A stretch of DNA of 62,156 nucleotides, the filler included, from Dugesia japonica (Eukaryota): the NCBI GenBank assembly GCA_001938525.1. It is 6 parts of 6 records of this genome, joined end to end, with 100 filler letters (N's around TTAATTAATTAA, not from the genome) between each part and the next. Parts side by side here need not be neighbours in the genome. Positions count along the whole stretch, not along the records: positions 35,109 to 43,709 come from MQRL01424968.1; 5 more parts are not named here. The stretch is one strand, 5' to 3'. Made by a program: the position numbers and the translations under genes. Within the stretch, counting starts at the first letter, position 1. Every line of letters begins with the position of its first letter. Below are positions 40,125 through 43,670 of the stretch, piece after piece. A model generated the notes under the pieces. It worked only from the letters and a program-made list of their open reading frames with translations. It had not been told where the DNA came from and did not search any database.

Positions 40125-41379
40125 TATTATTATTATTGATAGTAATTATAAAAGGACTCAAAAAATTACAAAATTACAGCACCAAATCAAATTTTGGTAG
40201 TTAACTATCTTTATTGAATAAACGTTTGTATTGAATTATCATTGATTATAATTGGATCAACTCTAAAGTACATTGACTGATATTGAATAGTGTCAGAGTT
40301 GAACCACTATTTCGTGGTTGTAATATGATCTTATTGATTTGAAAATCTCGTTAATACGATATACATCAATCTTCATTTCCAATTACATCGATATTTATAA
40401 TCAAATTTACACATTGTGATTGTGGAATGCGCCGAATATTAAATCGTCTGATTTTATCAGTGTTATTTTCAATAAAACATGAGATAATTAAAAAATGTTC
40501 AAATGTACTATTCCACTTTACTGTTTGGTACAAATTTGTATTGCTTTGTTAATTTATGATTTATTTACTACTTCAAATCGTATGACTTATTTTCGGATTT
40601 TTACATTTAATTGTCAAGTAACTCTCTTGGAATGTAATATCATTCGATGAAATCAATTCACAACTACTTACATTCATTTGCCAATTTATCTGCTTGTATG
40701 AGTCATTCGTATTTACTAGTAGTCATCAATAGACTCAGCAAAAGGAATTCTAGTGAATTAATATCAATTTTTATTTTATACCTAAATTATTTCCATTGAG
40801 TTTTTATTTTACAGATTTCGCTAGTATGATTGGATTGCATTGGACCTTTAAGCTATATAATTATTTGAAATGTATTTTATTTCAAATGATTTTATTTTTC
40901 ATTTACTTTCTCATTTTTGATAATGGAAAATTTATAAATTTCGTAACTCTTCAGTTAGAGGTGACTAGAATGATAGATTCAATGACATACATGTATCCTA
41001 TAAACAACCATAGATAATCAAAAGGTTCAAGTTAATAAGTAAACAATAGTGTTCAACGTTCTTCAATTTACGTGCCGAAATTCCTGCCGATTATTTTTAG
41101 TTGGGTGAATGTATCAGAAATTGAATCAACTATGAAAATTCTAATGTGTAGATTATACAGAATAAATAAACAATTTCTGGCTGTAGTTTGAACTCCATTT
41201 TGTAAAATATTCTAAAATATTTGAAGTACTATTTATAAATCCTGATGATGAACTGAAATAAAATCCTTATGTAAATTCATTTAAAAATATATCGTTAGAT
41301 TATTATTCTAAATATTTCAAAAATATTTGATCAAATTATAGGAAAAAAACAATTTTAACAATGATTTTTTATGATCGGA

Positions 41380-41457
41380 AGTAGGGGGATAGTAGGGCAT
41401 TACCCGCACATGCACAGCGCTGTGCATGTGCGGGTAATGCGCTACTATCCCCCTACT
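41380..41457. mobile_element. 78-bp near-perfect palindrome with Maverick-type termini and 6-bp TSD
   Basis: 39-bp arms with one mismatch and no loop. Termini AGTAG..CTACT. ATCGGA at 41374-41379 and 41458-41463. Confidence 0.85.
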
Positions 41458-43670
41458 ATCGGATCAAATTATTGGTGATTTGCGAAATTCATTTTCATAT
41501 AATCTTTAATTTGTAGTGAATATTTACAATTGAATTTCTATAAATGGACCATAAAGGTTTTTATAAATTATCCTTTATTTTAATTACTTTCATTATAGTG
41601 ATTGTTAGATGAGTTTGTAGCACTCATCGTTGAATTTAAAGGACCAGTTGATTGGTTAAAAAAATTTTATTAATAAAGCGATTTTTCATAAATATAGAAA
41701 AAGCTTCGATCAAAATAAAATGTATTTTTATAGAAATTCAAATTTTCGACACACTTACTTGTCTTCATGGAATATGATGATGACTTTTTGATAGATTCAA
41801 AACGATAATAGATAATTTTTGTTACAAAATTCTTTATATTTTATCATAATTTCATTGGTCTATTTAAATTAAAATTTTTTTATTTTAAAATTAAATCTCA
41901 AAAAATCTTTTTTTAATTTAATAGAATTGAAAATCTTTCAAATGTTTTCAAAAAAACTAATATATTAAAGTATTAAAATATTTAAAATATGTATTCTATT
42001 AACATTAAAATATTACAATATCAAAATAAAATTATTCTTTCTATCAACTTTTAATAAACATTCATAAACATTCCCCAAATTCATATGAAAAAAAACTTTT
42101 ATCAATATATTTTTACTAAAACATTCTTTTCAAAAATTTAATTTATTGATACTAATTTTTTGAAAATTTTAATTATTGTAATTATTGAAAATCACATTAA
42201 TCTCAGGTTTATTCTCTTTAATTAATATTTGTTCATGTTTTTTTTCTGTGAAGTGTAGAAATGTAGCCTGCTCCTAATTTTTTCCATGAAGAAGGCAAGT
42301 TTCGAAACTTTGAATTTCTTTACAAATACATTTTATTTTGATGGAAACTTTTTCTTTATGTTAATGAAATCTCAAATGAGATCAATGTTTAGTTGTCCAA
42401 CAATTATTCTCACAATAATTATAATTAAATAATAAATAATAAAAGTTATTTTTGTTTTAATAATCATTAATTACCTGATGATGACGTTTATTCTGTCGAG
42501 ATTAATTTCAACAAATCAATATTTTGTTAAATAACGTTCTTTTATTTTTATAAAAACAAACTATTTTAAACTCATCTTGTTAACAAATATAATTGTTAGG
42601 TGATTTTGGAAAACTCATCGAATCATTAACACCAGAATTCAACTCCATAAATTTATTAAAATAAAAACTATAACATCATTAATTGTTTAAACAAACAAAT
42701 TTAAAAATTCATNNNNNNNNNNNNNNNNNNNNNNNNNNNNNNNNNNNNNNNNNNNNNNNNNNNNNNNNNNNNTTTTGATTTTAAAAAATATACTACAATA
42801 AACATCTTTTATTCATTTAATTTTATATTTTAAAAATCCTTAAATTTTAATAAATTCCGTTTTCAAAAATAAAAAATTTAAATCTCTTTTTAAAAAACTA
42901 TCTTATAATAATAATTCAAAAAAAAAAGTGTTTTAATTATTTTTAATAACTATTTTAAGAAAAAATTTAAATAACAAAAATTTCTGTTTAATCATATATT
43001 TTAATTATTTTTAATAATTATTTATTAATATCTATTTTAAATTTTAAAATATAATAATTTATGTTATATGAAAAAACATTTTTTTAAAATTATTTAACTT
43101 CAAATTAAATAATTAAATTTATTATTAATTTCAAATTAGCTTAATTGATTTCAAAATTTTAATATTTATTACTTATGTTTTTTTAAAAACAAATCTCATA
43201 GTGATAATAACTTTAATAGATTGATTTAACAATTGTAATTATTGCGAGAATAATTGTTGGACGTAACCATTGATTGTTTTACATAATGCATTAAAATAAA
43301 AGCTTCGATGAAAATTTGTTTTTATTTGTTTTTGATCGAAGTTTTTATTTTAATGCAAATTGATGATATTTAATATTGAAAACAATCTTATTTAATTATT
43401 ACTAATAATATTAAAATCTGCCTCACTTAGAAGAATTTTCCTGTATTTTTAAAGTATTTTATTTATTTTTTATACAGAAAACACAGGAGGTTTCTCCAGT
43501 ACTTGTGGCATATGAAATTAATTAATTTTAATGATCATGACCCAGTCCATTTTAATGAGTCATATTTTCTTAGATCCAACCATTCAAAATAGAGATAAAT
43601 TCAAACATAATTAGACTTATTACTTTTTAAATTCATTTGATATACTTTCTTCTTCTTCTTCTTATTATTA

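Follow-up and report, generated by a model that had tools for sequence, protein, structure and literature searches.

In a stretch of 62,156 nucleotides from Dugesia japonica (the whole of which we call the window), a near-perfect palindrome of 78 nt without a loop lies at 41380-41457 between two copies of a six-letter word, which raises the question of how such a structure arose and which machinery placed it there. The original prediction described a 39-nt arm followed by its reverse complement with one mismatch and with ATCGGA on both sides (41374-41463 in all). This description was confirmed: the copies of ATCGGA directly abut the hairpin, and the pair 41396/41441 is the only one that is not complementary (Table 1). 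The 78-mer is the sole non-microsatellite near-perfect palindrome with arms longer than 18 nt in the whole window, and is GC-rich within surroundings of 24% GC. Folded as a single strand, with a forced 4-nt loop in the computation, it reaches -47.6 kcal/mol (z = -14.7), and none of 200 shuffles was equally stable. Pairs of identical 6-mers, of whatever sequence, lie 78 nt apart at 91 of 57,654 window positions (0.16%). No ORF of at least 70 aa overlaps the 78-mer. Its identity as a miRNA precursor was rejected: the five weak Rfam matches, the best of which scores 33.4 bits against a gathering threshold of 85, are hairpin noise.

Table 1. Features of the hairpin locus and of the related ends and gene remnants, in window positions.
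Feature	Position	Strand	Remarks
Left target site duplication copy, ATCGGA	41374..41379	.	Sequence; single copy at the empty site in 4/4 runs
Left TIR tip, outer 35 nt, begins AGTAG	41380..41414	+	G at position 17 (41396), C in the right tip
Self-complementary octamer CAGCGCTG, TIR positions 36-43, putative fusion point	41415..41422	.	Other copies match through it, then diverge
Right TIR tip, outer 35 nt, terminates CTACT	41423..41457	-	Agrees with the high-depth repeat form
Right target site duplication copy, ATCGGA	41458..41463	.	Sequence and run contigs
9,724-nt element, AGTAG ends, TIRs of about 250-270 nt (85.6%), 6-bp duplication AACGAA	11005..20728	+	
Right terminus of a longer element, closest of the siblings	28356..28425	-	First 14 nt identical, 16/18
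AGTAG-type right end	33668..33737	-	13/18 to the hairpin
Broken Maverick-type penton (minor capsid) gene	28499..29034	+	36 protein matches; tblastn to E 6e-18; profile E 3.5e-35
Maverick-type packaging ATPase remnant	26332..26445	+	tblastn E 6e-6 to L016:3241-3921, which carries Pox_A32

The hairpin is a real insertion, absent from other individuals, at a polymorphic site. Four of 19 listed public runs, from four studies (X9, X1, X3 and X10), were compared over 41080-41680 in the form of assembled contigs, not raw reads. All four contain a contig of the empty site, where 41373 is joined to 41458, 84 nt are skipped, six letters are shared and a single ATCGGA is left, so that the insertion is polymorphic and its 6-bp duplication a true one. 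A 1.4-kb contig at flank depth spans the empty site in X1 and in X3. The flank contig of X9 (depth 9.54) stops exactly at 41379, the empty branch has a depth of 4, and the overlap at the junction is 24 + 6 = 30 nt, the geometry of a fork; X9 therefore probably carries both alleles. Since it is still polymorphic, the insertion is probably recent. The filled allele at 41374-41463 is not among the 32 of 2,445 contig pieces listed, and the putative insert length of 78 bp is that of the assembly. Without the insertion, the target is an interrupted palindrome, TGATC-G-GATCA, and the 6-bp duplication lies half a base off its centre (41372-41466). Nearby, at 41171, the assembly is without two A's that are present in all four runs, which looks like a local assembly error, of the kind seen at homopolymers, or like another haplotype.

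The arm of the hairpin corresponds to the tip of a repeat present in many copies, with very roughly 10^2-10^3 ends. Summed contig depth, which is no copy number, is about 1,950-2,270 times that of the flank over the right arm in X9, X1 and X3, which come from three studies. When corrected for the largest overlap inflation, the depth is still 150-175 times that of the flank, the value from which the rough range of ends is derived. In X10, a much smaller data set, the arms have only 3-4 times the flank depth, against 144 times at a neighbouring repeat; this low depth (41374-41457) might reflect a library biased against fold-back DNA, filtering of the record or a real difference in copy number. 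In three runs, a separate high-copy repeat, at 41584-41667, reaches 800-1,200 times the depth of the flank.

The common form of this end is longer than the 78-mer: it consists of 43 terminal nucleotides through CAGCGCTG, followed by other sequence. This follows from the 22-23 contigs per deep run (23 in X9, 22 in X1, 23 in X3) that match rightward from 41415 and carry loose, divergent letters beyond it. Among the loose ends listed, which are short (median 14-25 nt) and to which 265 further ones can be added, these letters, taken from the terminus towards the interior, give GGCGGA, a run of C and a run of G (agreement 0.61-0.65), a continuation absent from the window. The start of the loose ends is the same in all three deep runs, 41415, where the octamer that straddles the hairpin centre has its outer boundary, 4 nt beyond that centre. 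Were the junction unrelated, a match of four bases beyond the centre would have a chance of 0.4%. A self-complementary octamer somewhere within 60 nt is itself not rare, being expected in 19% of cases.

These observations suggest how the loop may have been lost. The octamer is its own reverse complement, so that its copies in the left and the right TIR of a longer element are direct repeats, and the 78-mer, as 35 nt plus octamer plus 35 nt, matches the product of a deletion between them. We therefore favour, at slightly better than even odds (about 0.55), a miniature element that arose by deletion from a member of a multi-copy non-coding family with Maverick/Polinton-type ends and is fused at the self-complementary octamer. 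The process would have involved 1) entry of the element into a single ATCGGA, which was duplicated at the still polymorphic site, as the empty sites show; 2) an end of the common 43-nt form with its G- and C-rich continuation, as seen in the contigs; 3) slippage or microhomology-mediated joining between the octamer copies, which would remove the interior and leave 35 + 8 + 35 = 78 nt, loop-less; 4) cutting and joining of the ends in trans, presumably by a Maverick integrase of retroviral type; and 5) a deletion that may have taken place at this site once the element had inserted, or before that in a donor copy. Deletion between microhomologies of 6-8 nt has been documented as the origin of three MITE families of Aedes and of Made1 (PMC3814204; this and the other papers below are cited from excerpts). 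The fusion of two TIR tips that had been predicted is thereby supported, its junction being the octamer through which other copies continue. The prediction had left two routes to it, the collapse of a full element and the integration of a tiny hairpin substrate. The sharing of 43 nt, octamer included, by copies that then go on favours the collapse of a longer element. The integration of a tiny substrate and the further proposal that the 78-mer defines the minimal cis sequence for a Maverick integrase both remain conjectural, as loop-less copies make up only a minor share of the ends and the length of the filled allele was not seen in the runs.

To which superfamily do these ends belong? Maverick is the best assignment, and very probably the right one. 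Vertebrate Mavericks make 6-bp duplications and end in (AGT)2 or (AG)3 (excerpts of PMC8097293), and the hairpin resembles Maverick/Polinton elements in its 6-bp duplication, in ends of AG..CT type that bear a short terminal repeat and in having TIRs (PMC8097293; PMC3014272, both in excerpt). The ATCGGA that flanks it is present once at the empty site in 4/4 runs, AGTAG..CTACT gives five of the six letters of (AGT)2, and the TIRs are the 39-nt arms with their one mismatch. Genes for pPolB, integrase, ATPase and capsid and a length above 10 kb were not found in an insertion of 78 bp that overlaps no ORF of 70 aa, and it is thus not an autonomous Maverick. Intact vertebrate elements, in the excerpts available, measure 12.7-24.6 kb, have TIRs of 46-1,447 bp and are mostly present in few copies, whereas the hairpin has 78 bp, no gene, no interior and an abundant family of ends.

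The window contains further ends of this type, including those of the 9.7-kb element, to whose terminus the hairpin had been likened. The likeness is real (15 of the first 18 nt) and short (5 of the following 21), and the 9.7-kb element was ruled out as parent for lack of likeness after nt 18; it represents a sibling family instead. The closest sibling terminus, at 28425, behaves in the same way (16/18, then 4/21), and no partner end was found for it. Right ends at 28425, 33737, 45317 and 46392 are all unpaired; together with the 9.7-kb element, they share the frame AGTAG..GAT..GC and agree with the hairpin at 13-16 of the first 18 nt and randomly beyond, so that no sibling end in the window is the parent. 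End motifs number 10 in the window against a shuffle mean of 0.72, a count that is circular and lends no support because the motif was drawn from these same ends. The 9.7-kb element, which contains three orphan ORFs and, inside its TIRs, a second inverted pair (12457-12932 / 17345-17808, 66%), shows no match to the 127 ORFs of penton-bearing loci, and is a candidate gene-less cargo element with Maverick ends. A 68% copy of its segment 18989-19307 lies at 34664-34971 and stops at a gap. Copies in the same orientation (89%) at 45161-45335 and 46237-46408 have decayed AGTAG-type termini, and a third end-like motif occurs at 45100.

Sibling ends lie among remnants of Maverick genes. The penton and ATPase remnants are 0.07 and 2 kb from the end at 28425. 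The predicted model of the best relative of the penton matches the mavirus penton (E 5.8e-7), and 22 of the 36 matches, for the most part those of nearly full length, were aligned; one match, P0008, which has RTX repeats and no matched stretch, was dropped as false. The loci of the penton relatives encode a Pox_A32 ATPase and an rve integrase, and their ORFs map back to the window stretches with the two remnants. One of these loci, the Maverick-like metagenome locus L016 (225-2866), has two penton paralogues and, upstream, ubiquitin-conjugating and TBP-like ORFs, and its large, polymerase-sized ORF weakly matches 59352-59591 (E 2e-4). In the window, 26137-33737 is a nested tangle with both remnants and the right ends at 28425 and 33737, in which no left ends were found; its right ends carry C/G-runs and TCTGATC-like subterminal repeats. 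Since the tangle is nested, the remnants cannot be assigned to one end. Searches with the penton gave no Pfam match for the remnant or its relatives, no match in a PDB sequence search and only unnamed short clusters in the Atlas, and word-based searches missed it. No gene-bearing element that shares the hairpin TIR beyond nt 18 was found in the window or in three collections. The 23-nt arm pattern gave nothing in viral, metagenome or prokaryote contigs, and two end motifs gave nothing in viral contigs; the end motif occurs in none of the 22 penton-bearing loci, which probably lack their ends. A Maverick origin is likely, through AGTAG ends, the 6-bp duplication and the remnants beside sibling ends, although the link is circumstantial.

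Mobilisation by another superfamily with 6-bp duplications, which concerns the mobiliser and could be combined with any other reading, is quite improbable. It would account for Maverick genes not being physically linked to the hairpin TIR, and some hAT groups also make 6-bp duplications. Mavericks are mostly low-copy in the excerpts of PMC8097293, against the abundant end here, and the integrase-related IS3EU/GingerRoot transposons make 6-bp duplications too (excerpts of PMC10045372). However, the latter end in TA..TA or TG..CA, which the AG..CT of the hairpin does not match, Ginger elements have TGTNR ends with duplications of 4-5 bp (excerpts of PMC2836005), and both the near-complete (AGT)2 motif and the setting of the sibling ends among Maverick gene remnants point to Mavericks.

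The 78-mer might also be mobile in its own right, born once by the octamer deletion and then copied and inserted, at its length of 78 bp, through the integrase of a Maverick, or the insertion might be longer than it appears. Loop-less copies are a minor form, at most a few percent of ends: the excess depth that crosses the centre amounts to no more than 2-4% of the depth on the inner right arm, while the left arm has 1-3.5% of right-arm depth. A 70-nt contig of X3 crosses the centre over 41380-41449 with 5 differences (depth 4.14); it is the single other crossing copy among the contigs listed and comes without flanks or duplication. X3 is empty at this locus and yet has this contig, so that the loop-less form exists elsewhere, where it could be a mobile short subfamily or a separate deletion at the same octamer. 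A subfamily is also suggested by the depth of the left arm, with its G at position 17, which reaches 24-80 times flank depth in three runs although the insertion is absent from two of them; moreover, a probably young, polymorphic insertion leaves scant time for a second event in place, and Made1, a near-palindrome of 80 bp, was able to spread (excerpts of PMC1784062). Against this stand the rarity of loop-less forms, the one crossing contig, the steric difficulty that both ends of a 78-bp duplex would probably meet in one integrase complex and the fact that repeated independent deletion at the octamer would give an identical picture. We consider such mobility doubtful. The 78-bp form is short and non-coding and has TIRs and a duplication, as MITEs do, which makes it a candidate MITE, and in its working it resembles a Maverick-ended one. 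A wider version, in which a Maverick integrase mobilises an abundant MITE family made up of a full palindrome of about 116-118 bp, whose ends number in the hundreds or more, and of a 78-bp derivative that has entered new sites itself, can be entertained tentatively. The parent would consist of the 43-nt tip, GGCGGA, a C-run and G-run at the centre, and the mirror image, a size that follows from taking the C-run/G-run as the centre of the long form. Both the self-complementary runs and the shortness of the loose ends agree with the centre of a palindrome, but a long TIR that is broken at homopolymers would agree as well. GC-rich fold-back DNA between short direct repeats is a classic substrate for slippage, and a real but longer insertion, whose G/C-run core between the direct octamers was skipped in amplification or assembly, would agree with the fragmentation of the assembly (five linker gaps in the window), with the apparent homopolymer error at 41171 and with the filled allele being in none of the contig pieces listed. 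But the crossing contig of X3, with its 5 differences and from another library, argues for a genomic copy rather than slippage in the common form, and both flanks are unique and continuous, unlike those of an amplification fold-back; we hold this artefact to be unlikely. The deletion derivative remains our preferred reading.

Among known systems, Made1 is similar in having about 80 bp, nearly all of it TIR, in a near-perfect palindrome (PMC1784062), and in deriving from Hsmar1 by deletion at a 6-bp microhomology (PMC3814204; both in excerpt). It differs in being a proven family of Tc1/mariner type that retains a 6-bp spacer, whereas the hairpin has a 6-bp duplication and no spacer, the microhomology being self-complementary, and the mobility of its short form is putative. 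The Ozma-derived MITEs Gnome, Elf and Goblin of Aedes were likewise miniaturised between microhomologies of 6-8 bp (excerpts of PMC3814204), but they keep internal sequence and have a known Tc1/mariner parent, while that of the hairpin is only partly seen. Kapitonov and Jurka reportedly described multi-kb non-autonomous Polintons in 2006. Mobile polintons that lack polB are described in insects (excerpts of bioRxiv 10.1101/2025.02.07.637071), an anole study notes in its excerpts an apparent absence of non-autonomous Polintons (PMC3014272), and the phrase 'non-autonomous Maverick/Polinton' occurs in a paper on Tlr1. No Maverick-derived MITE or palindrome appeared in the literature searched, which was represented in part; one may be catalogued in Repbase, Dfam or supplements, which lay outside the search.

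Other features of the window include an AT-rich palindromic repeat family of about 216 nt (37784-37999, with relatives at 42282-42525, 43206-43332, 52943-53009 and 61112-61477), probably another MITE, and a probable LTR retrotransposon remnant at 29826-32584, with a 174-aa ORF (30547-31071) between 38-nt direct repeats that has no Pfam match and that we take to be gag-like. Talin I/LWEQ and PIG-A domains are also encoded, and the host is an AT-rich animal. Blocks at 10880, 26037, 35009, 43710 and 53031 each consist of 44 N, a 12-nt linker with stops in six frames and 44 N; we read them as assembly gaps, and the assembly as fragmented near repeats.

This locus illustrates a simple general rule: any self-complementary word within a TIR recurs in direct orientation at the other end of the element, and a deletion between the two copies produces a palindrome without a loop. 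Were the 78-mer only a collapsed copy or an artefact, its value would be reduced to that of a neat example of this rule. Mavericks are large virus-like elements whose excision, replication and integration are largely inferred. If an abundant, polymorphic and gene-less family with Maverick-type ends is real, their integrase, and perhaps their polymerase, would act in trans on tiny substrates, in parallel with the cut-and-paste transposases that act on MITEs. Should the palindromic MITE family be real, it would represent a MITE that depends on Mavericks and would set a bound of 39 nt per end on the cis sequence that insertion requires.
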